Source of the DNA: a virus
Taxonomy: Duplodnaviria; Heunggongvirae; Uroviricota; Caudoviricetes
DNA: 11,265 nt
Virus record (IMG/VR): IMGVR_UViG_2541047828_000001
Direction: 5' to 3' (one strand)
Positions 1 to 11,265 of the stretch are shown here, piece after piece. A program made the translations under genes and the position numbers. Under the pieces are notes generated by a model. That model ran no database searches and was not told where the DNA came from. It saw only the letters and a list, made by a program, of their open reading frames with translations. Numbering within the stretch: position 1 is the stretch's first letter; each line of letters starts with the position of its first letter.

Positions 1-170
1 ATGATTTTCTGGTGCGTACCGGGTTGAGAAGCGGTGTAAGTGAACTGCAGTTGCCATGTTTTACGGCAGTGAGAGCAGAGATAGCGCTGATGTCCGGCGG
101 TGCTTTTGCCGTTACGCACCACCCCGTCAGTAGCTGAACAGGAGGGACAGCTGATAGAAACAGAAGCCAC
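1..170 (-). CDS. insA: IS1 InsA protein, N-terminal 56 codons (3' end cut by window edge)
   Basis: Minus-strand translation from the GTG at 168-170 gives [57 protein letters not shown], matching IS1 InsA from memory. It is absent from the ORF track only because it is under 60 codons in the window. Confidence 0.85.
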
Positions 171-225
171 TGGAGCACCTCAAAAACACCATCATACACT
201 AAATCAGTAAGTTGGCAGCATCACC
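1..225 (-). mobile_element. IS1 insertion sequence, partial (terminal ~225 bp; the rest lies beyond the window start)
   Basis: The reverse complement of 187-225 reads GGTGATGCTGCCAACTTACTGATTTAGTGTATGATGGTG, which I recognise as the IS1 terminal inverted repeat and left arm. The insA reading frame follows. The IS1 terminus is at 225. Confidence 0.85.
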
Positions 226-342
226 CACGCCCTGATGCGCACGGTGAAATGCACCAAAGCCTAAATGAATAATTCTTGGGGCCAGGTTATTACGATCATA
301 AACAGGGAGTGTCGCTTTTGCTGATAACAAATTATTTCCCAT
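226..342 (-). pseudogene. ydfI: 5' fragment (39 codons) of a mannitol-dehydrogenase-family oxidoreductase gene, interrupted by IS1
   Basis: Minus-strand ATG at 340-342, preceded by AAGGAA, translates as [39 protein letters not shown] and then runs straight into the IS1 terminus at 225. [12 protein letters not shown] is the dinucleotide-binding signature of the mannitol/mannonate dehydrogenase family. The gene symbol is inferred from K-12 synteny (ydfI next to ydfJ). Confidence 0.6.
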
Positions 343-390
343 AACAATTCCTTAAATTTAAATATGGCAAGCTATATGTTTTGTTATATG

Positions 391-424
391 AATAAAAATC
401 CCCTCTCCGGTAAGAGAAGGGATT
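391..424 (-). terminator. Intrinsic terminator downstream of ydfJ
   Basis: Inverted repeat AATCCCCTCTCC / GAGAAGGGATT (about a 10-bp stem with one G-U pair) immediately 3' of the ydfJ stop (431-433). On the minus strand it is followed by TTTTTATT. Confidence 0.55.
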
Positions 425-430
425 GAGGGT

Positions 431-1714
431 TTACAGACTTCTGGAAGGTTGCGCAGCTCTTACAACACGCGGTTGATCTTCCGCAGCGTCTTCCAGCGCA
501 CTTAAATCACGGTCTTTCACCTCTGGCATTTTCAGCGCAGAGATTAAACCAATTACTGAATATGCCATGATCATAATGGCGATCGGATACCAGGATTCCG
601 TCATGGTGCAGAAAATACCCGCCAGGATAGGACCAAAACCGGAAGCGATAAGACCACCAATTTCTTTAGAAATAGCCATCCGGGTAAAGCGGTTTTTACA
701 GCCGAACATTTCTGCCATGGTAATGTTTTCCAGAGCAAATAATCCCAGCACCGCACAGTTATGAATCACAATCAGTGCAACCATAATGGTGCTCGGGGCA
801 TAGCTTTTATCTACAATGATAGAAAGCATTGGCCATGCCAGCACAATCGCGGAGGTATTCATAATAATATACGGGATCCGGCGACCAATTTTATCGGATA
901 ACCAACCAAGGAACGGAATGGTCATAAAGCCGAGAATCGAACTAATCATCAATGCATCTGTTGGAATTGCTTTGTTAAACAATAACGTCTGCACTAAATA
1001 GCCTGCAAGGAAAGTCTGAATTAACCCGGAGTTACCCGCCTGACCAAAACGCAGCCCTGTTGCCAGCCAGAAGGATTTGCTCTGGAACATGCTACCAGCA
1101 GGTGCAGGTTTTGCTGTGGGTTGGTTGCTGTCATTAACCTTCTCAAAGACCGGGCTTTCTTTCAGATTCATACGTAACCAGATAGCAAAGACCATCACGA
1201 CAACGCTCGCCAGGAACGGTATACGCCATCCCCACGCCAGCAGTTCCTCTTTACTGAGAATGAAGAACATAAAGGCCCAGATTGCCGTTGCGCTCAAGGT
1301 TCCGCAGTTAGTTCCCATAGCTACAAATGAGGAGATAATTCCGCGCTTACCTTTTGGTGCATATTCCGCCAGCATCGTACCGGCACCGGAAATTTCCGCA
1401 CCTGCACCCAACCCCTGAATAATACGCAGCGTCACCAGCAAGATGGGGGCAAAAACACCAATCTGTGCATAGGTCGGTAACACACCAATTAAGGTGGTAC
1501 AGATCCCCATCATGGTGATGGTAATAAAGAGCACTTTTTTACGCCCTATTCTGTCGCCCATTTTGCCGAAAATAAATGCTCCGACAATACGCGCCACATA
1601 ACCTGCACCGTAGGTTCCCATTGCCAAAATTAACGCCATTGCCGTTGATGATTCAGGAAAAAATATTTCATGAAACACCAACGCTGCGCCGAGCGAATAT
1701 AACTGGAAATCCAT
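431..1714 (-). CDS. ydfJ: MFS transporter (metabolite:H+ symporter-like), 427 codons, lacking the normal N-terminal ~30 residues
   Basis: A 427-aa ORF with multiple hydrophobic segments and MFS-like motifs (GxLxDRxGRKK, GxxAEYAPxxKRG). The product starts MDFQLYSLGAALVFHEIFFP, i.e. inside the conserved (E/D)W(Y/F)DF..LYG motif that normally lies ~25-40 residues into MHS-family transporters. An in-frame TGA lies two codons upstream and there is no Shine-Dalgarno sequence. Confidence 0.8.
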   Translation of the reverse strand: MDFQLYSLGAALVFHEIFFPESSTAMALILAMGTYGAGYVARIVGAFIFGKMGDRIGRKKVLFITITMMGICTTLIGVLPTYAQIGVFAPILLVTLRIIQGLGAGAEISGAGTMLAEYAPKGKRGIISSFVAMGTNCGTLSATAIWAFMFFILSKEELLAWGWRIPFLASVVVMVFAIWLRMNLKESPVFEKVNDSNQPTAKPAPAGSMFQSKSFWLATGLRFGQAGNSGLIQTFLAGYLVQTLLFNKAIPTDALMISSILGFMTIPFLGWLSDKIGRRIPYIIMNTSAIVLAWPMLSIIVDKSYAPSTIMVALIVIHNCAVLGLFALENITMAEMFGCKNRFTRMAISKEIGGLIASGFGPILAGIFCTMTESWYPIAIMIMAYSVIGLISALKMPEVKDRDLSALEDAAEDQPRVVRAAQPSRSL

Positions 1715-2317
1715 AATTCACAGGTGTTTTTTCCCATCCTGTGGTTTCCTTGGCGTTTTCTAGGTTTTTTCAGATAGTTGCATTTTTTAAAAAGCATCCT
1801 AAGTTCGATCTCAGTGTCTATCTGGGGCCTATTTCTGTCCCATATATGCCCCAAAAAAACTCCCCAACAGATAAGTAGTTTTTTCATGGATTTATGCGTA
1901 AAATCAAGAACGGCTGGAAATCATTCAATACTCACACTATCGAAAAATTTACCAGCCAACCGCAGCACGTTCTTGCATAAGGCGTGTCTGCGGTTTTTCA
2001 ACTATTCAGATACATCACTCCCATCACATTCATTCCTCCGCATCAAAGGCATATAGGCTATATCACCTTGATATTTTTCTTTTTCAGATAAAAACTGTTA
2101 TCTATGTATACTTTTAAACCCAATCCGTGTAGAGTCTCTGCATAAGATAGTTTGCAGTTGCCGCTTCAGCTTGCGCCATAAACCGCCTGATTTTTGCTGC
2201 CACCTGTTAGCATTCCTGTATACCTGAAACGACAATGTTTATCTACGAACTTTAAGAACACCCAAGATAAAAATTGTCAACTATATCATATATAACACAT
2301 TACTAATTCGAGGCTAT

Positions 2318-2431
2318 ATGAACAGCATACTGATAATCACATCTCTCCTTATCATATTCAGCATTTTTAGTCATGCCCTAATAAAATTAGGGATTGGCAT
2401 ATCCAATAACCCAGACAAAACCGATGTATAA
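2318..2431 (+). CDS. Hypothetical 37-aa hydrophobic small protein ([37 protein letters not shown])
   Basis: ATG at 2318 with GAGG 4 nt upstream (2310-2313). Residues 3-28 are uniformly hydrophobic and the tail is polar. It ends 68 bp before the ydfK start on the same strand. Not in the ORF track because it is under 60 codons. Coding status is unproven. Confidence 0.3.
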
Positions 2432-2499
2432 GTCAACATATCCTGAATCAGACATACAATATCGCAATGAAAATCAATAATATTTTAAGGAATATCTTC

Positions 2500-2733
2500 A
2501 TGAAATCAAAAGACACCCTAAAGTGGTTCCCTGCGCAGCTTCCTGAAGTAAGAATTATCCTAGGGGATGCTGTAGTGGAAGTAGCAAAACAGGGAAGACC
2601 TATCAATACCAGAACATTGCTTGATTACATTGAAGGAAACATAAAGAAAAAATCATGGCTGGATAACAAAGAATTATTACAAACAGCGATATCAGTTCTT
2701 AAAGACAACCAAAATTTAAATGGCAAAATGTAA
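2500..2733 (+). CDS. ydfK: Small prophage protein of the YdfK/YnaE family (77 aa)
   Basis: ATG at 2500 is preceded by AAGGAA (2487-2492) with a 7-nt spacer. The ORF-track start at 2467 has no SD. The sequence MKSKDTLKWFPAQLPEVRIILGDAVVEVAKQGRPINTRTLLDYIEGNIKK is recognised from memory as the Qin/Rac YdfK/YnaE protein, and it sits between ydfJ and pin as in K-12. Confidence 0.8.
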   Translation: MKSKDTLKWFPAQLPEVRIILGDAVVEVAKQGRPINTRTLLDYIEGNIKKKSWLDNKELLQTAISVLKDNQNLNGKM

Positions 2734-3049
2734 TATAATAAACTTACTTTTTTATCATTTTTCCACTTTAACAACATTTTGCTCCACTTTTCCACGACCA
2801 AACAACTTGAAATCTGGTTAAAATAACACGCAACACTATTCTTCTTCCTTGAGTCCGCCCGGAACTCGAAAAACAAACCGAGTTAAAGCCATTTTTCACA
2901 AAATCGATTTTGGGTCTCACCAAAATTACGGGGTTGCATACGCATTCGTTTATTTTCGAACGTGTACATACAAATATGCACAAAAATAATCATAATTATT
3001 TTCTGAGATGCATTATGATATGAACACCAATTTCGTATAGAGTCTCACT

Positions 3050-3640
3050 ATGTCTCGAATTTTTGCTTACTGTCGGATATCAACGCTGGATCAGACCACC
3101 GAAAATCAACGCCGGGAAATCGAAAGTGCAGGTTTTAAAATCAAACCTCAGCAAATAATCGAAGAACACATTAGCGGCTCAGCAGCAACCAGTGAGCGTC
3201 CTGGTTTTAACCGGTTGCTTGCTCGCCTGAAATGTGGTGATCAATTGATTGTGACAAAACTGGATCGCCTTGGTTGTAATGCAATGGATATCAGGAAAAC
3301 AGTGGAACAACTGACCGAAACAGGTATCAGAGTGCATTGCTTAGCATTGGGTGGCATTGACCTGACCAGTCCAACAGGAAAAATGATGATGCAAGTAATT
3401 TCAGCAGTCGCTGAATTTGAACGAGACCTTTTACTTGAACGCACTCATTCCGGGATAGTAAGAGCCCGCGGCGCAGGGAAACGTTTTGGTCGACCACCTG
3501 TGTTAAATGAAGAACAGAAACAGGTGGTATTCGAACGAATTAAGTCAGGTGTAAGTATAAGTGCCATTGCCCGGGAATTCAAAACCTCGCGGCAAACCAT
3601 TTTAAGAGCCAAAGCAAAACTTCAGACACCTGACATATAA
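3050..3640 (+). CDS. pinQ: Pin-type serine recombinase / DNA invertase (196 aa)
   Basis: N-terminal YCRISTLDQ catalytic-serine motif (Ser11) with resolvase/invertase-fold motifs, and a C-terminal helix-turn-helix ([18 protein letters not shown]). Length and sequence match the Pin invertases of Rac and Qin from memory. The Q suffix is inferred from the ydfJ/ydfK context. Confidence 0.9.
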
Positions 3641-3737
3641 AAAATAATCTCGGTGTGAGATGCTTTACGTCTTCCAAGCCCCCTTCCTTGCCGTAAATGG
3701 AAAGATACATCTAATTATAGAATTTATATGTTTTACC

Positions 3738-3911
3738 CTACGGCAGTGCTGGCCATTCAATATCCGGTACTACTGATGTATTAACACGGTTCAGCAACAC
3801 CCGATACTTTTTCCAGACTTCTAGCAACGAAGTTTCTTCCTCCGTTGCGATTTCCAGCTCAACAACAGTCTGAACGTACCAGGAACAGCCTCCTTCAGGG
3901 CTTGAAGGATA
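3738..3911 (-). pseudogene. tfa: 3' relic of tail fibre assembly gene tfa (last ~45 codons, no start codon)
   Basis: The minus-strand frame continuing straight after the stf stop translates as [57 protein letters not shown]. From LEIAT onward it is near-identical to the C-terminus of lambda Tfa as I recall it ([39 protein letters not shown]). There is no Met or GTG start in this frame. The stop is at 3738-3740. Confidence 0.7.
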
Positions 3912-6900
3912 TCAATGTTCGCTTCCTGTTAACTGCCCGACAAGTGCAACCAGTTCGCTTACCTGATTTTCCAGAGTGCTGATCCGGGTGCCTGCTGTTG
4001 CCAGATTTTGACGTAGCGTTGTGTTTTCCTCTTCCAGCGCGGTAACGCGATCATCTGTTTCACGGGCGACCTGAACAAGTAAGCCCGTCACGGCGGCGTA
4101 GTCAACATTCAGATAACGTGTTTCTTCACGTAATTCATTGCCGTCAACCGTTGGTCCCTGCAACTCTTCACCGTAATGAGTAAACGATCCCACAGCTTCT
4201 GGTATCGCCTCCATTACTTCCTGTGCAATAACGCCAGCATAAGGCATCCCGTTTTCCCTGAGCGTGTAGGTGTATCCGTTCATTTTACGGATTGCTTTCG
4301 TCGCGTCGCTGATAACGAGAATATCGTCTTTAAGGTCGCGGTCTGATGACTGATTCAGCGTTGTGCAATTAATAGCGCCATTTACATCAAACAACTGGCC
4401 TGCTGACGTTTTTTGCGCATAAAACAGATACGCAGCAGACGTTCCAACCTCAAAAAAGTTTTGTCGAGTACTGGAACCCCACACCCTGACAGAAAACGGT
4501 AGTTCTGCATTACCTGAGTTCTGTAAAACAAAACGATTGCCAGTCCCTGATTGTTTTGTAAGGGTTAAATCAACAGTTGAGTTAACCTCATTCCTGTTGA
4601 TAGTGAGCGCCTGCGCTGTAGCCCCGTTAACAGCACCTGTTTTGAGTTGAACCGCGCCGTCATTACCATTTAACAGTATCTCAGCTCCGCTAAAGAAATT
4701 TTTTAGCGACAGCATCTTACTTACGCCGACTGATGAACCCAACGCCCACGCGAGAGAATTACCGGTGCTATCAAACCCACGTACAAAGCAATCCATTTTG
4801 CTATAGTCTGACGTGCTTCCAAGGACATCAATCCGCCCTCCGCCAGATTTTAACGGGTTAGATGTGGTTAATGACCTGACAGCAAGATCGGTGGATGAAT
4901 TTAGATCGTCTACTGTTAGTAATTTCTTCCATTCCTGCGTCGTTCCGTTTTCAACTGTTCTTCCCCAAAAACCGGAATTGCGGCCTCCGAACTGCACAGC
5001 ATAATTTTTACTAAATTGAACATGAATGCCGCCAAGAACCATAGAACCTGCCGGGCCGTTTGTACTGCCTGCGATTGGTCTAAATTTGTCGACGTTATCA
5101 GTATGCTGAGAGTTCCAGTCATGACCTGTTAATGTTGCGATTCCTGAGTTAGCTGTAATTAACCCAGACGCTTTAAGATTTTGCACATCAATTCTGTCGT
5201 TTGCGAAATTATATGCAATTGCGTTACTAACGCTTCCGGCATCATCATAATCGCGTTTCTGAATAAACCAGTCGCCAGCATTAGCAATGAGAGTATAAGT
5301 AGGCGTGTTAGCCGGGCGATCTGTTTCATTAAATCTTATTGCTGGGTTAGCGCTCCTTATTTGTAAAGGTTTTTCAACCGTTGATTTCAGTATCGCACTA
5401 TCTACAATTAAATTACCTTCTGAGTTAAGGTTTAGATATTTTGAAGCACCAGTTGAACCATCGTATGTAAACCTTATTGTTAATTGACCTGGCTCATTTG
5501 ATAAAGTCTCAACATACATATCAGCACCAAGACGCACAGTGCTGTCAGTTGCTAACAGTCTTGTATGGAGAATACCACTAGATGTGTATGTATTGGTCGA
5601 ATCACTATATCTATCAAGAAATAGACTGTTAAGTTGAGGGCTATTACTCCTGCCTAATCCAAGATTCGTTCTGGCACCATCAATAGTTGCCGCACCAGTA
5701 CCACCATGAGAAACATCAAGCGGTATCCATTTTTTTTGTGTGTCGCTGTAACACCCCCATGTTGATCCGGTTAAACCCAGGCGCATGGATTTATCATGGT
5801 TATATAACCATGTTTCGCTACTCCATTGGTCAAGACGGTCCACTTCATTTTTGCGAGCGTGGCGTGTCCATTGCGGGCCTATTGTCGGATTCCAGCGATA
5901 AGTATAAAGCGAGCGCGTAGCCCATCCCTGAAATACACCTGTATACGCTGGTGTTCCATCTACCTGACTAATAAACCCCGTAAGACTGCTTTCACCGGAT
6001 GCAATCGATGGAAAGCCTTTTGCATTACTCATAATGCGCATAAATCCGATATACCCTGATGGGTTGCCGGAAATATCAGGACAATCACGCGGTGCTGAGC
6101 CAAGACCGATATTATCGCCAACAATTAATTGCGCCTGGTTGCGATAATTAAGTGCGTCCGCCGCAGATTTCGCCGCGTTTGTTTCACTGGATTTAGCATT
6201 AGTTTCGCTGGCTTTAGCGTTGGTTTCGCTGCTCTTTGCTGCTGCCTCGCTATTTTTCGCGTTGGTTTCTGATTTTTTGGCTGCTGTCGCGGAGTTTGCC
6301 GATGCAGTTTGTGAGTCTGCTGCCGCCTGTGCGCTGTTATCCGCATTCGTCTCAGACGTTTTTGCGGCCTTCGCGGAATTTCCTGCCGCCGTTGCCGAGG
6401 AAGCTGCACTACTGGCACTTGATGATGCGTTCGTTTCTGATGATTTCGCTGCCTCTTTTGAGGCCGCCGCATCCCGGGCTGAGGTGGCAGCTTCTGACGC
6501 TTTCGTGGTCGCGGTGGATGCAGAAGTAGCTGCAGATTTTTGTGACGCTGCAGCATTCGTTTCTGACGTTTTCGCCGCACCGGCACTGGTGGCTGCCGCG
6601 CTTTTTGAGGACTCTGCAGCGGCAGCACTTTTTAATGCTTCAGTGGCCTTTGTTGATGCCGTTCCTGCGCTGGAAGATGCTGACTGAGCAGATGATGCAG
6701 CCTGTCCGGCTGACGTGCTGGCGGCACGTGCTGAGCCTGCGGCATCGGTTGCATGGGTTGCCGCCTCACAGGCAGATGTGCCGGCATCGCTGGCTGACTT
6801 CTTTGCGGCAGCCGTGTTCTGTGCCACTGCGGACGCGTTATGCGCCACCTCTTCCACCATCAGTTCAAAGCGGCGCAGTGCCTCCGGACGGGCATCATCC

Positions 6901-7184
6901 TCCGTCATGGCACCAAGAAAATCATTCAGCGTACCCGGTTGTGAGTCTTCATACACGGTGATGGTCCCGGCATGCGATGGCGGGAAGCCTTCCACCAACA
7001 GAATAACGCTGTACTGACCGTACTCAACGTCCATGCTGTAACGCCCGGCTTCATCCGGATTTTCTGAGGCCACCGTGTTCACCACCACCGTGGTGCTGTT
7101 ACGTTTTGCTTTCAGCTGGATTGTGCAGTTCTGTACCGGTTTACCTGCACCGTCTTTCAGTACACCTGAAATCTTTACTGCCAT
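3912..7184 (-). CDS. stf: Side tail fibre protein (~1090 aa) with a C-terminal intramolecular chaperone domain
   Basis: The N-terminus MAVKISGVLKDGAGKPVQNCTIQLKAKRNSTTVVVN matches lambda Stf from memory. The likely start is the ATG at 7182-7184 with GGGGTG upstream; the ORF-track start is a GTG two codons earlier. The stop is at 3912-3914. It follows lom in the lambda order J-lom-stf. Confidence 0.9.
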   Translation of the reverse strand: MAVKISGVLKDGAGKPVQNCTIQLKAKRNSTTVVVNTVASENPDEAGRYSMDVEYGQYSVILLVEGFPPSHAGTITVYEDSQPGTLNDFLGAMTEDDARPEALRRFELMVEEVAHNASAVAQNTAAAKKSASDAGTSACEAATHATDAAGSARAASTSAGQAASSAQSASSSAGTASTKATEALKSAAAAESSKSAAATSAGAAKTSETNAAASQKSAATSASTATTKASEAATSARDAAASKEAAKSSETNASSSASSAASSATAAGNSAKAAKTSETNADNSAQAAADSQTASANSATAAKKSETNAKNSEAAAKSSETNAKASETNAKSSETNAAKSAADALNYRNQAQLIVGDNIGLGSAPRDCPDISGNPSGYIGFMRIMSNAKGFPSIASGESSLTGFISQVDGTPAYTGVFQGWATRSLYTYRWNPTIGPQWTRHARKNEVDRLDQWSSETWLYNHDKSMRLGLTGSTWGCYSDTQKKWIPLDVSHGGTGAATIDGARTNLGLGRSNSPQLNSLFLDRYSDSTNTYTSSGILHTRLLATDSTVRLGADMYVETLSNEPGQLTIRFTYDGSTGASKYLNLNSEGNLIVDSAILKSTVEKPLQIRSANPAIRFNETDRPANTPTYTLIANAGDWFIQKRDYDDAGSVSNAIAYNFANDRIDVQNLKASGLITANSGIATLTGHDWNSQHTDNVDKFRPIAGSTNGPAGSMVLGGIHVQFSKNYAVQFGGRNSGFWGRTVENGTTQEWKKLLTVDDLNSSTDLAVRSLTTSNPLKSGGGRIDVLGSTSDYSKMDCFVRGFDSTGNSLAWALGSSVGVSKMLSLKNFFSGAEILLNGNDGAVQLKTGAVNGATAQALTINRNEVNSTVDLTLTKQSGTGNRFVLQNSGNAELPFSVRVWGSSTRQNFFEVGTSAAYLFYAQKTSAGQLFDVNGAINCTTLNQSSDRDLKDDILVISDATKAIRKMNGYTYTLRENGMPYAGVIAQEVMEAIPEAVGSFTHYGEELQGPTVDGNELREETRYLNVDYAAVTGLLVQVARETDDRVTALEEENTTLRQNLATAGTRISTLENQVSELVALVGQLTGSEH
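3915..4346 (-). other. Peptidase S74 / C-terminal intramolecular chaperone domain of stf (last ~144 codons)
   Basis: The C-terminal segment SDRDLKDDILVISDATKAIRKMNGYTYTLRENGMPYAGVIAQEVMEAIPEAVG fits the S74 chaperone signature (S-D-x-R-x-K ... Y ... G-x-IAQEV...P). It is followed by a heptad-like tail (RVTALEEENTTLRQNLATAGTRISTLENQVSELVALVGQL). Confidence 0.75.
6156..6839. repeat. Intragenic imperfect tandem repeats encoding the Ala/Ser/Thr-rich (K)SSETNA repeat region of Stf
   Basis: Protein residues ~118-345 are low-complexity with recurring KSSETNA, KTSETNA and SAATSA units. In the DNA this appears as reiterated gtttc/tttcgctg/gcggc motifs. This is a known feature of lambda-type Stf. Confidence 0.6.
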
Positions 7185-7190
7185 ATTCAC

Positions 7191-7222
7191 CCCACAAAAA
7201 AGCCCGCCTGAACCGGCGGGCT
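7191..7222 (-). terminator. Intrinsic terminator between lom and stf
   Basis: Minus strand reads AGCCCGCC-GGTTCA-GGCGGGCT followed by TTTTTTGTGGGG. The perfect 8-bp GC-rich stem is at plus 7201-7222 and the T-run overlaps the stf ribosome-binding site. Confidence 0.6.
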
Positions 7223-7248
7223 GTCATAACACTGTGTTACCTGGCTAA

Positions 7249-7848
7249 TCAGAACTTATAACCGACACCCACGATGAAACCGTCAGTGCGCCAGTCGCCA
7301 CTGCCGGAGCCTTCATAAGCAATATCAATGGCCACGGATTCGGTCGGGTTAAACTGCACGCCAGTCCCCCACGCCAGAGACGTGTTGCTGCGGCGACCGT
7401 CATCACTTCCGGTCAGCACTTCGTGCGTTTTCCCCTTGTTGTCAGTTACGCGGAGATAATCCCCGGAGAAAGTAGAAATACGGCTGTAAGCCACACCCGC
7501 CATCGCATACGCGCTGAACCATTCATTCACGCGCACAGACGGCCCCGCCATCACGCTGAACCAGCGGTTACGCACGGAATCTTCATGCCAGCGGGTATCG
7601 CTGTAATGAGTCAGCTGGCGATTCTTGTCTTCTGCATAGCTGAATGACGTCACCATCCCCAGCGTGTCCGTAAACTCATAACGGTATTTCACGTTAATCC
7701 CGTTAAGATCATCGCTGCCGGGAACGTTCGTCGAGGCATGAAGATACCCCGCGCTCAGCGAGGACTGATGTTCAGACGCCCATGCAGGCGCACCGGATAC
7801 GACCAGACAGATGGCTGCGGACAAAATGGCTGCACAAACTTTACGCAT
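7249..7848 (-). CDS. lom: Lom outer-membrane protein (Ail/Lom/PagC family), 199 aa
   Basis: MRKVCAAILSAAICLVVSGAPAWASEHQSSLSAGYLHASTN... has a signal peptide with AWA|SE cleavage-like site, is near-identical to lambda Lom from memory, and ends in the beta-barrel terminal YKF. GAGAGG lies upstream of the ATG at 7846-7848. Confidence 0.9.
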   Translation of the reverse strand: MRKVCAAILSAAICLVVSGAPAWASEHQSSLSAGYLHASTNVPGSDDLNGINVKYRYEFTDTLGMVTSFSYAEDKNRQLTHYSDTRWHEDSVRNRWFSVMAGPSVRVNEWFSAYAMAGVAYSRISTFSGDYLRVTDNKGKTHEVLTGSDDGRRSNTSLAWGTGVQFNPTESVAIDIAYEGSGSGDWRTDGFIVGVGYKF

Positions 7849-7869
7849 AATTACCTCTCGCTTTTCTGC

Positions 7870-7899
7870 AATAAAAAAGGCGTCATTCCTGACGCCCTT
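7870..7899 (-). terminator. Intrinsic terminator between J and lom
   Basis: Minus strand reads GGCGTCA-GGAA-TGACGCC followed by TTTTTTATT, immediately after the J stop at 7919-7921. Confidence 0.6.
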
Positions 7900-7918
7900 T
7901 ATTGGGGTTATAACAATT

Positions 7919-10900
7919 TCAACGAATACTGATACCGGAAGCAGCCTTTTTGGTCACAATCACCGTACAGTCGGTGATATTGCCTGCCCCCTGATTGCCT
8001 TTCTGGAAAATCTTAAACTCCAGAGTGACGCTTCCCCTGCCACTCGGCATATCAATAACCGCACTGTAACTACCGGGAATGGCCCCTTTAGTTTCTCTGG
8101 ATGCGATTAATACGCCGTTTTTGCGAACTTCAAAACCATACCCCGTGTACCTTGTACCTCCCGGGTTATCACCACTTCCCGGATCGTCATACGCTATACC
8201 GTTAAAGATAATGGGCGGAATAATGATTTGACGGTCAAAGTTATGATCATCGCTGATGGTGACTGTAACCGTCCCGTCTGGTGTTTCCGTATTACCCCAC
8301 GTACCAGCCTGTTTCGGGAATGATTTGGATACTGTTTTAACAAAATCACCTCTGACCTGATTCGCCTCCAGCATGCCCTTAATCGTACAGTTTTCATTTA
8401 TCGTGACGTTGTTGAGCGTCCCGGAGTTCGCATTCACACTGCCACTGATATCCGCATTTTTAGCGGTCAGCTTTCCGTCCGGTGTCAGGGAAAATACCGG
8501 TGGATTTCCACCACTGGTAATGGTGGGGGCCGTCAGACGTTTGAGGAACACGTCGTTCATGAATATCTGGTTGCCCTGCGCCACAAACATCGGCGTTTCA
8601 TTCCCGTTTGCCGGGTCAATAAACGCGATACGGTTAGCAGCAACCAGAAACTGGCTCAGTTTGCCTTCCTCTGTATCCTCCATGCTGAGGCCAAGCCCCG
8701 CGACATAATGTTTGCCGTCTTTGGTCTGCTCAATTTTGACGCCCCACATGGCATTCCATTTATCGTTGGCGTCTTTCCACTCTTTCGAAAACTCCTCCAG
8801 TCTGCTGGCGTTATCCTCCGTCAGGTCGACTTTTTCCAGCAGCTCCTTGCCGAGATGGGATTCGGTTATCTGGCCTTTGAAAAAATCCAGGTAACCTTCC
8901 GCATCATCGCTCGCCCGACCGACGGCCTCCACGAATGTCGATTTGCCAACGGTGTTCACACTGCGGATATAAAAGTAATAATCATGGCCCGGTTTGATAT
9001 TGATACTGGCGGCTATCCAGTACAGCGCCGTACCAAGATAGCGGGCTGTGGTTTCAACCTGCCTGATATCGGTAATCCGCTTTTCCGAGAACCAGAACTC
9101 AAACTGTACTGTCGGGTCATAAACGGCAAGATGCGGCGTGGCGGTTATCTGAAAATAGCCCGGCGTCAGCTCAATCCTCGACGGTGTTGCCGGTGCGGCA
9201 ATCCGGAACGATACCGACGCCGGATCGCCCTGCTGTCCCCACGCATTTACCGCCCGGACTGTCAGCGTGTAGTTCCCCAGCGCCAGTTGCGTGAAGCGGT
9301 ATGTGGTTTCCGTCGTCCGGGCCGTGCTGACCAGCCGCTCACTGCCGTCATCCGCTGCCACGGTCAGGCGAAGCATAAAGCTCACCCCCTTCACCACCTT
9401 CGGCGTGTCCCAGCGCGCCAGCACCTGATATTCCCCGCTGTCTGCGGTGACTTCGGCAGTCAGGTGCTGCACCGCTGGCGGCGTGACACCATTCACCGTG
9501 CCGCTCTGGTCGCCGTCAAAGTGCGCCCCGTTATCCACGATGGCCTCTTTTTCCGGTACATGCTGCACGGCGGTGATGGCATACGTGCCGTCATCGTTCT
9601 CACGGATACTCACGCAGCGGAACAGACGCTGGCGCAGCGTCGGCAGCTTCAGCCCCCATACGCTGTATCCGGCAACGCCGTCAGGAACACGGCTCACTTT
9701 TACCTTCACGCCGTCGGTGACGGACTGGACCTCCACGCTGACCGGATTGCCACTTCCGTCAACCAGGCTTATCAGCGTGGTACCGGAGGATGGCAGCGTG
9801 ATTTCACGGTCGAGCGTCAGCGTCCGGGTCTGGCTGTTCACCGCCAGCACGCGCCCGCCGGTGCTGATCCCCGCATAGTCATCATCGCAGATTTCAATAA
9901 CATCACCCGGCACATGGCGAAGCCCTTCGGCACCCACGCTGAAATCCACGGTCTGCGTCTCCAGCAGCTCCGTTTTAATCAGCCACAGCCCGGCGCGGTG
10001 TGCCTGCCCCCGGCAGGTACAGCCAAAGGCATCCATCTTCGTAACATTACGACCGTAACGGGCAATGGCCTGCGTATCTTCAACAAGCTCTGTCGCCGTC
10101 TCCCAGCCGTTGTTCGGGTCAATCCAGTTCACCTCAACGGCATTATGGCGGTCCTTCAGGGCGCTGAAGCTGTAGCGGAACGGCGCGCCATCATCCGGCA
10201 TCACCACATTACTGCGGTTATAGGTCCACACCTTATCCGACGGTCGGTCCTGCACGAACGTCAGCGTCTGCCCGTTCCATACCGGCATACAGCGCATCGC
10301 CGAGCAGAAATCACTGAGCACATCCCACGCCTTGCGCTGTGTGGTCAGGTACGCATTACAGGTGATGCGCGGCTCCGTGCCGCCAAAGCCGTCCGGCACT
10401 GACTGGTCGCAGTACTGGCCGATGACATACAGCGCCCATTTATCCACATCCGCCGCACCAAGACGTTTCCCCATGCCGTAGCGCGGATGGGTCAGCATAT
10501 CCCACAGACACCAGGCCATGTTGTTGCTGTATGCCGGTTTAAACGTTCCGTCCCAGATACCGCTGTATTGCCGCGTCTGCGGGTTATAATTCGACGGCAC
10601 CTGCAGAATACGCCCGCGCAGATGATAATTACGGCTCACCTGCTGGCTGCCGAACTGCTCCGAGTCCACCTGCACGCCGACCAGTGCCGTGTTCGGGTAG
10701 CACTGTTTCACATCGATGATTTCGGTGTATGACGACCAGAGCGTTTTGTTCTGCAGCTGGTCTGTGGTGCTGTCCGGCGTCATCCTGCGCATCCGGATAT
10801 TAAACGGGCGCGGCGGCAGGTTATCCACCACCACCGAGGCCAGATACTGCGACGTGGTTTTGCCCTTAATGGTGATGTCTTTTTCCGTCACCCAGCCACC

Positions 10901-11265
10901 ATTACGCTGTATCTGAACCAGCAGGCGGACTTCCGACGGATTCCGATCACCCTTTGAGGTGGTTTCCACCAGTGCCTGCACGCCGAAAGTAAAACGCAGA
11001 CGGTCAATGTTTGCCGACGTGATGGTCCGGGTGATCGGCGTGTCATATTTCACTTCCGTACCCAGCACCGTCTCGGAGCCGGAGGATTCAAATCCCTCCG
11101 GCGGTGTCTGCTCCTGCTCACCTGCCCGGAACACCACCGTGACGCCGGAGATATTGGTATTCCCCTCACTGTCCAGCACCGGCGTACTGTTCAGCAGCAC
11201 GCTTTTTAATCCATCCACCGGACCTTCAACCGGCCCTTCGCTGATGGCATCGATCACACTCAGCA
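7919..11265 (-). CDS. J: Tail tip / host-specificity protein J (central tail fibre), 5'-partial; ~20 N-terminal codons lie beyond the window end
   Basis: A 1112-codon frame that is essentially collinear with lambda J from memory ([28 protein letters not shown]...). The apparent start at 11257 is an internal GTG; the frame stays open to the window edge (..LSVIDAIS). The last ~150 residues diverge from lambda J. Confidence 0.9.

Follow-up and report, generated by a model that had tools for sequence, protein, structure and literature searches.

Among the Escherichia coli genes that receive lambdoid prophages is ydfJ, and its truncation by Qin has already been published, with Nakamura et al. among the sources; E. 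coli genomes are found in this ordinary state very often. For strains W, K-12, B and Crooks, Archer et al. 2011 (PMC3032704) placed Qin at ydfJ, and the integration of Qin has been described as costing ydfJ its promoter and its 28 N-terminal codons (PMC6379469). In PMC8112680, the att sequences of ydfJ prophages are defined experimentally, an attP PCR amplicon is sequenced from a related ydfJ prophage of the O26:H11 strain 11368, and the occupants of the site are reported to include effector-carrying prophage clusters in EHEC.

We examined an 11,265-nt stretch of DNA (hereafter the window) in which ydfJ likewise stands without its beginning. An earlier sequence-only reading had offered two accounts of this: integration of a prophage in the 5' end of the gene or, alternatively, a 1-bp frameshift that, once repaired, would restore an N-terminus with ELWDFQ. 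The empty site, the abrupt break in homology, the far end of the prophage and the attP of free phages all agree with the first of these. Thus, we regard it as practically certain that window 1706–1716 is the attR core of a Qin/mEp460-type lambdoid prophage of ~46 kb, integrated in ydfJ by a tyrosine integrase. The odd start of YdfJ is neither a sequencing error nor a frameshift. The coordinates of the features are collected in Table 1.

Table 1. Features of the window, numbered from its first base.
Feature	Position	Strand	Basis
IS1 end	1–225	InsA N-terminus 170–3 (-)	Zn_ribbon_InsA 6.7e-22; terminal inverted repeat ends at 225
ydfI start	226–342	-	Interrupted by IS1 after codon 39
ydfJ 3' remnant, codons 29–455, MHS-family MFS transporter	431–1714	-	ORF and translation against the intact ECO11 protein
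85-codon ORF across the junction (the '-1 frame' of the sequence-only reading)	1630–1887	-	Translation; no Pfam family
11-bp attachment identity core (attR copy), TTATGGATTTC	1706–1716	-	Same 11-mer in attB, attL and attP
Extended imperfect attB/attP match, CTTGAATTTATGGATTTC versus CTGTGAATTATGGATTTC, 14/18 ungapped	1706–1723	-	Read from the att alignment
Phage-derived non-coding arm of attR (P arm of attP), prophage right end	1717–2300	-	582/584 against PhiR42_1
Two TGGGRCA heptamers, 11 nt apart (1853–1847 and 1842–1836)	1836–1853	-	Repeat search of the phage locus
ynfT, prophage small protein	2318–2431	+	Mapped from MS 85-1 (100% identical)
ydfK, prophage cold-shock protein	2500–2733	+	Annotation of related genomes
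pinQ serine invertase (Resolvase + HTH_7), intact	3050–3640	+	ORF, domains
Prophage tail fibre with S74 endopeptidase domain	3912–7184	-	ORF and MS 85-1 annotation
Ail/Lom family outer-membrane protein (lom)	7249–7848	-	ORF and MS 85-1 annotation
gpJ tail tip/host specificity protein, cut by the window end	7919–11265	-	ORF and MS 85-1 annotation

The truncated ydfJ and the empty site

The remnant is a minus-strand ORF of 427 aa whose first residues are MDFQLYSLGAALVFHEIFFP (MDFQLYSLG), the same start that had been read before. The minus strand around it runs CTG TGA ATT ATG GAT TTC, with a TGA in frame two codons before the ATG, and the junction bases upstream are ...AAAAACACCTGTGAATT/ATGGATTTCCAG. 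A Shine-Dalgarno sequence, sought upstream of this ATG as a GGAG-like purine run, is absent. Both the stop codon and the lack of a Shine-Dalgarno had been pointed out in the sequence-only reading, as had the position of the start inside the conserved N-terminal motif, which the domain matches bear out: intact YdfJ is matched by Pfam MFS_1 from profile position 2 (residue 21), whereas the remnant enters the profile only at position 33. With its 28 N-terminal residues gone, the remnant is short of a full-length MHS-family MFS core with the N-terminal TM1 motif, and in K-12, strain 190 and MS 85-1 it bears the RefSeq label 'incomplete; missing N-terminus'. To illustrate the N-terminal motif, we compared the intact YdfJ sequence with solved structures in the PDB, and no match reached E<=1e-10.

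The unoccupied arrangement is seen in the prophage-free genome ECO11, where rspB, 57 bp of spacer, a 455-aa ydfJ and ydfI follow one another. The intact protein begins with MTIEKHERSTKDLVKAAVSGWLGTALEF and continues with MDFQLYSLG, which gives the motif LEFMDFQLYS (...GTALEF-MDFQLYSLG; ...WLGTALEFMDFQ). Since 28 residues precede MDFQ in the intact protein, the ATG at window 1714 is its internal codon 29. Alignment with the empty site showed the window to be identical at 198/200 positions on the gene side of 1716 but at only 53/200, a random level, from 1717 onwards; homology is thus lost abruptly at 1716/1717, the outcome that the sequence-only reading had named as favouring a junction, and prophage-free strains do not continue with the window's sequence plus one additional base. 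The sequence-only reading had placed the junction at about 1715–1760. The range can be tightened somewhat, to the 11-bp core at 1706–1716 with phage-only sequence from 1717.

With window 1400–2100 as the megablast query, nearly all of a set of 5,426 complete E. coli genomes were matched. The matches fell in two main classes: full-length ones and ones that end at window 1720 (position 321 of the query), the latter class including ECO11. A 311-nt query laid across attB was uninterrupted in 2,009 of the 5,426 genomes, with rspB, ydfJ and ydfI contiguous as in ECO11, and was split at the core in most others; thus, ~62% of complete E. coli genomes are occupied at the ydfJ site. A Qin-like right arm, with at least 80% of window 1400–2100 covered, is found in 2,574 genomes. 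Few lambdoid integration hot spots in E. coli are busier than ydfJ.

Neither a promoter nor a terminator was found in the 57-bp rspB–ydfJ spacer of the empty site, which is consistent with co-transcription of rspB and ydfJ and is no proof of it; integration would uncouple ydfJ-ydfI from the rspAB promoter. The ydfJ-ydfI/rspAB cluster has reportedly been linked to L-gulonate catabolism (Wichelecki et al., Biochemistry 2014), and our search of a literature collection for the L-gulonate/RspB context returned no relevant match.

A second frame upstream of the remnant does read ...KKPRKRQGNHRMGKNTCELW, as the sequence-only reading had it, and belongs to the 85-codon ORF across the junction. This ORF consists of phage arm DNA running into out-of-frame ydfJ and is therefore possible solely in lysogens; three Qin-type lysogens, K-12 AG100, strain 190 and MS 85-1, have no annotation for it, and it is most likely not a gene. 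In F829 (locus L010), the Qin-type arm is kept for ~45 bp past the attR core and then gives way to the IS5-like ISKpn26, and RefSeq annotates a hypothetical protein of 83 aa that overlaps the junction and is analogous to the 85-codon ORF of the window. A phage-supplied substitute N-terminus in the style of e14 in icd was also considered and rejected, since the ORF upstream is in another frame, matches no family and is unlike the lost 28 residues.

The other prophage end, attP and the integrase

We read attL and the integrase in the genomes closest to the window, namely MS 85-1 (100% identical over 226–11265) and strain 190 (100% over 1400–2100). Both contain a complete lambdoid prophage extending from the tail genes of the window to an integrase/excisionase pair that adjoins rspB; that of MS 85-1 measures 45,623 bp from core to core. 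Between rspB and the integrase gene of strain 190, K-12 and MS 85-1 we found the missing 84 nt of ydfJ followed by TTATGGATTTC, i.e., the duplicated core that the sequence-only reading had envisaged at the far end, together with the 28 codons that the remnant lacks. The phage DNA that follows the core at attL is AAGAGTCATGCGTGTTAAC..., and the 5' stub of ydfJ encodes 36 aa, MTIEKHERSTKDLVKAAVSGWLGTALEFMDFKSHAC, up to a stop codon. The other end of the window's own prophage would be expected to show the same order: rspB, 57 bp, 84 nt of ydfJ, TTATGGATTTC, AAGAGTCATGCG and int. In the K-12 Qin, both junctions are identical in form. Further, the junction GAATT/ATGGATTTC is identical in seven other lysogens, three of which (O157:H7 M1300706002, DETEC-P1056 and PSS-15) form it with clearly divergent phage arms.

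The integrase gene next to attL is intact and codes for 426 aa in strain 190 and MS 85-1. The strain 190 product combines an Arm-DNA-bind_2 domain (1.6e-23) with a Phage_integrase domain (3.9e-18) and is a tyrosine recombinase; the integrase looked for at the opposite prophage end is thus present in strain 190 as an arm-binding tyrosine integrase, with an equivalent gene in MS 85-1. The K-12 copy is a pseudogene that has lost its N-terminus and is adjoined by a fragment of an IS2 transposase.

The predicted attP was rebuilt as a 389-nt sequence in which the core is flanked by the phage sides of attR (reverse complement of window 1900–1717) and attL, and was searched against a collection of phage genomes. 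It is contiguous in PhiR42_1 at 100% and in mEp460_ev081, HannyBb and Tritos at 98.5–99.2%, and in all four phages it directly follows the integrase gene on the downstream side. The 11-mer TTATGGATTTC is accordingly shared by attB (ECO11), attR (the window), attL (strain 190, K-12 and MS 85-1) and the attP of PhiR42_1 and mEp460_ev081, and the phage-derived arm of the window matches the sequence abutting the core in the free phage PhiR42_1 almost base for base (Table 1). At attP the free phages read CACCTGTGAATTATGGATTTCAAGAG, with the GAATT-ATGG form that differs by one T from the host GAATTTATGG. As GAATTATGG is the native phage attP sequence, this single-T difference is not a mutation in ydfJ. 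Fifteen records of Stx2a-converting phages (LC727844–LC727872) match the predicted attP from the core onwards only (query 185–388, identity ~90%), and in every record the match is located at the extreme end; these phages appear to combine a related integrase-side arm and core with a different opposite arm, and their attachment site may be the same one or a relative of it.

Read as sequences, the four att sites are shown to be related by one reciprocal crossover in the 11-bp core, and strand exchange must take place within this core or at its edges. The 18-bp extended match is probably equivalent to the '18- or 19-bp att sequence' of ydfJ prophages defined in S7 Fig of PMC8112680. Just four copies of TGGGRCA are present in the 3.7-kb PhiR42_1 locus, where they form two tandem pairs of the same orientation, at -137/-126 and +70/+81 from the core, with one pair per arm; we consider these pairs candidate arm-type integrase-binding sites. 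A second core-like 21-mer, ACCTGTGCATTATTGTTTTCA, lies in the 3' end of int in PhiR42_1 (L007 1135–1155), 127 nt from the core, and agrees with the attP core region ACCTGTGAATTATGGATTTCA at 18/21 positions; it may be due to chance or be a secondary site.

The normal bacterial site for a Qin-type prophage, attB, lies inside ydfJ codons 27–31, and recombination of attP (...CACCTGTGAA-TTATGGATTTC-AAGAGTCAT...) with attB (...GCGCTTGAAT-TTATGGATTTC-CAGTTATAT...) splits the gene, in a crossover that, on the well-established lambda Int paradigm, the arm-binding tyrosine integrase would catalyse. The ribosome-binding site and the first 28 codons of ydfJ are left beside rspB, ~45.6 kb off at attL, while codons 29–455 stay at attR, inside the window. 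Because codon 29 is an ATG, ORF finders take it for the start of a 427-aa 'gene' that opens with MDFQ; the upstream TGA and the missing Shine-Dalgarno are features of plain phage arm DNA.

Alternative explanations

The frameshift account supposes a ydfJ that is colinear with the intact gene and has lost 1 bp, so that a base restored after TGG gives an N-terminus ...NTCELWDFQLYSLG. The upstream frame is indeed open for 59 codons, and the single T that separates GAATT-ATGG from the intact GAATTTATGG looks like an indel at first sight. However, the intact protein reads ...WLGTALEFMDFQ and not ...ELWDFQ, its ancestral form being LEFMDFQ; the window sequence upstream of 1716 bears no relation to intact ydfJ (53/200) instead of being colinear with it; and the GAATTATGG form recurs in the attP of free phages and in 8/8 lysogens examined, which makes the supposedly missing base a phage-derived one. 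Further, Pfam gives no match to the hypothetical N-terminus, KKPRKRQGNHRMGKNTCE, which by eye is without the hydrophobic first half of TM1, and the true 28 codons sit at attL, 45.6 kb away. The supporting details were also misplaced: where a G-run had been seen at 1714–1720, the plus strand reads TAATTCA, and the insertion point TGG/AT, put at about 1716, lies at about 1710/1711. We regard this account as refuted, with next to no chance of being right. It is just as hard to credit that the junction arose from a non-specific rearrangement, such as a deletion of the 5' end of ydfJ or a transposition, instead of site-specific recombination. IS elements are active nearby, with IS1 in ydfI (window 1–225) and IS2 in the integrase gene of the K-12 Qin, but nothing has been deleted, the 84 nt and the core being intact at the other prophage end; the crossover falls in the 11-bp identity common to attB and attP; the junction is alike base for base in diverged prophages; and the reciprocal attP is found beside a tyrosine integrase in free phages.

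With site-specific integration at ydfJ as the origin of the junction, we infer that the remnant it left behind is untranslated or non-functional, as it has no first half of TM1, no translation signals of its own and no promoter-like site nearby. The last point comes from a simple sigma-70 scan of the minus strand over 1717–2480, which found no promoter-like site and gave total counts not above those of shuffles, and is weak evidence; read-through transcription from the prophage would be compatible with it. That the 427-aa remnant is alive seems to us very improbable; its transcription would have to come from the prophage end and its translation to start at Met29, with some function left as an N-terminally shortened transporter. 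In its favor, the 427-codon frame is open in all 8 remnants examined, and the pairwise pN/pS is 0.027 among these versus 0.036 among 6 intact alleles, a comparison of a small sample that is confounded by recurrent, reversible integration and says nothing firm on function. Changes in the ydfJ transcript have also been reported on DicC induction in K-12, where the gene is among those differentially expressed. However, so low a pN/pS is equally expected from recent, recurrent and reversible integration or from allele exchange with intact strains; the remnant has neither a Shine-Dalgarno nor a minus-strand promoter-like site across 1717–2480; and the first ~30 positions of the MFS_1 profile are missing, part of TM1 included. 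Its downstream partner ydfI is moreover destroyed by IS1 in this genome, which suggests that the ydfJ-ydfI unit is dispensable, at least here. Very improbable, too, is that selection keeps the remnant open and that it is expressed by read-through, with a role either as an MFS protein short of its N-terminus or in regulating the rsp/ydfI sugar-acid pathway; were this so, occupancy of ydfJ by the prophage would modulate host metabolism rather than merely knock out a gene.

Neighbouring genes and the ends of the window

The prophage genes that the sequence-only reading had recognized directly upstream of ydfJ are all present: ynfT, ydfK, pinQ, the tail fibre gene, lom and gpJ (Table 1). The pinQ gene is an intact frame of 196 codons in the window and is annotated as frameshifted (590 nt) in MS 85-1, the two being one base apart. 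A short fragment of a tfaQ-type tail fibre assembly gene, annotated without its N-terminus, lies at ~3738–3863 on the minus strand. The tail fibre of the window, with its S74 endopeptidase (intramolecular chaperone) domain, replaces the type found in K-12 and strain 190, and this looks like a swap of the tail-fibre module beside the Pin invertase. Elsewhere in the MS 85-1 prophage (L018 21437–23950), we found a QueH-like gene and a gene for a protein with a KwaB-like (Kiwa anti-phage) domain; the same slot holds relBE in the K-12 Qin and a DUF4209 gene in strain 190, as a variable cargo or defence slot.

At the opposite end of the window, the best whole-window matches all begin at 226, and none of them has the IS1 insertion. 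With IS1 in ydfI and the prophage in ydfJ, both genes are disrupted in this genome.

Comparison with known systems

The closest described counterpart is the K-12 Qin (Kim), in which ydfJ is the pseudogene b4600. It shares with the window the attR junction and arm, an attL beside rspB, and the right-end genes ynfT, ydfK, pinQ and tfaQ; K-12 AG100 is 99.0% identical over window 1400–2100 and identical through the junction. The annotation of K-12-like genomes stands to gain from this, since a 427-aa 'YdfJ' reported there by an ORF finder is a prophage-truncated pseudogene. In contrast to the window's prophage, Qin is a decayed remnant of 20.5 kb that lacks tail genes and whose integrase is interrupted by IS2; the prophage of the window is full-length (~46 kb), includes a long tail fibre besides gpJ and lom, and has its closest relative in MS 85-1, where int and xis are intact.

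Among free phages, the lambdoid siphoviruses PhiR42_1, mEp460_ev081, HannyBb and Tritos resemble this prophage in having a homologous integrase by attP and a module of ydfK, a Ser recombinase and tail fibre assembly next to it. They differ from the window in that attP is uninterrupted in the deposited phage records, of which those of PhiR42_1 and mEp460_ev081 are linear; the similarity is known for the attP region.

More broadly, e14 in icd, Rac in ttcA and Stx phages in wrbA/yehV likewise target the inside of a coding sequence, with a prophage end that replaces the terminus of the gene. In icd, e14 supplies a substitute gene end, and the host protein stays functional. For Rac, which integrates at the 5' end of ttcA, a TtcA whose N-terminus is varied has been described (PMC6379469). 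The ydfJ junction is unlike icd/e14 and ttcA/Rac in that the phage arm brings no in-frame replacement: a stop codon stands two codons upstream of the remnant, and the sole upstream ORF is unrelated and in a different frame.
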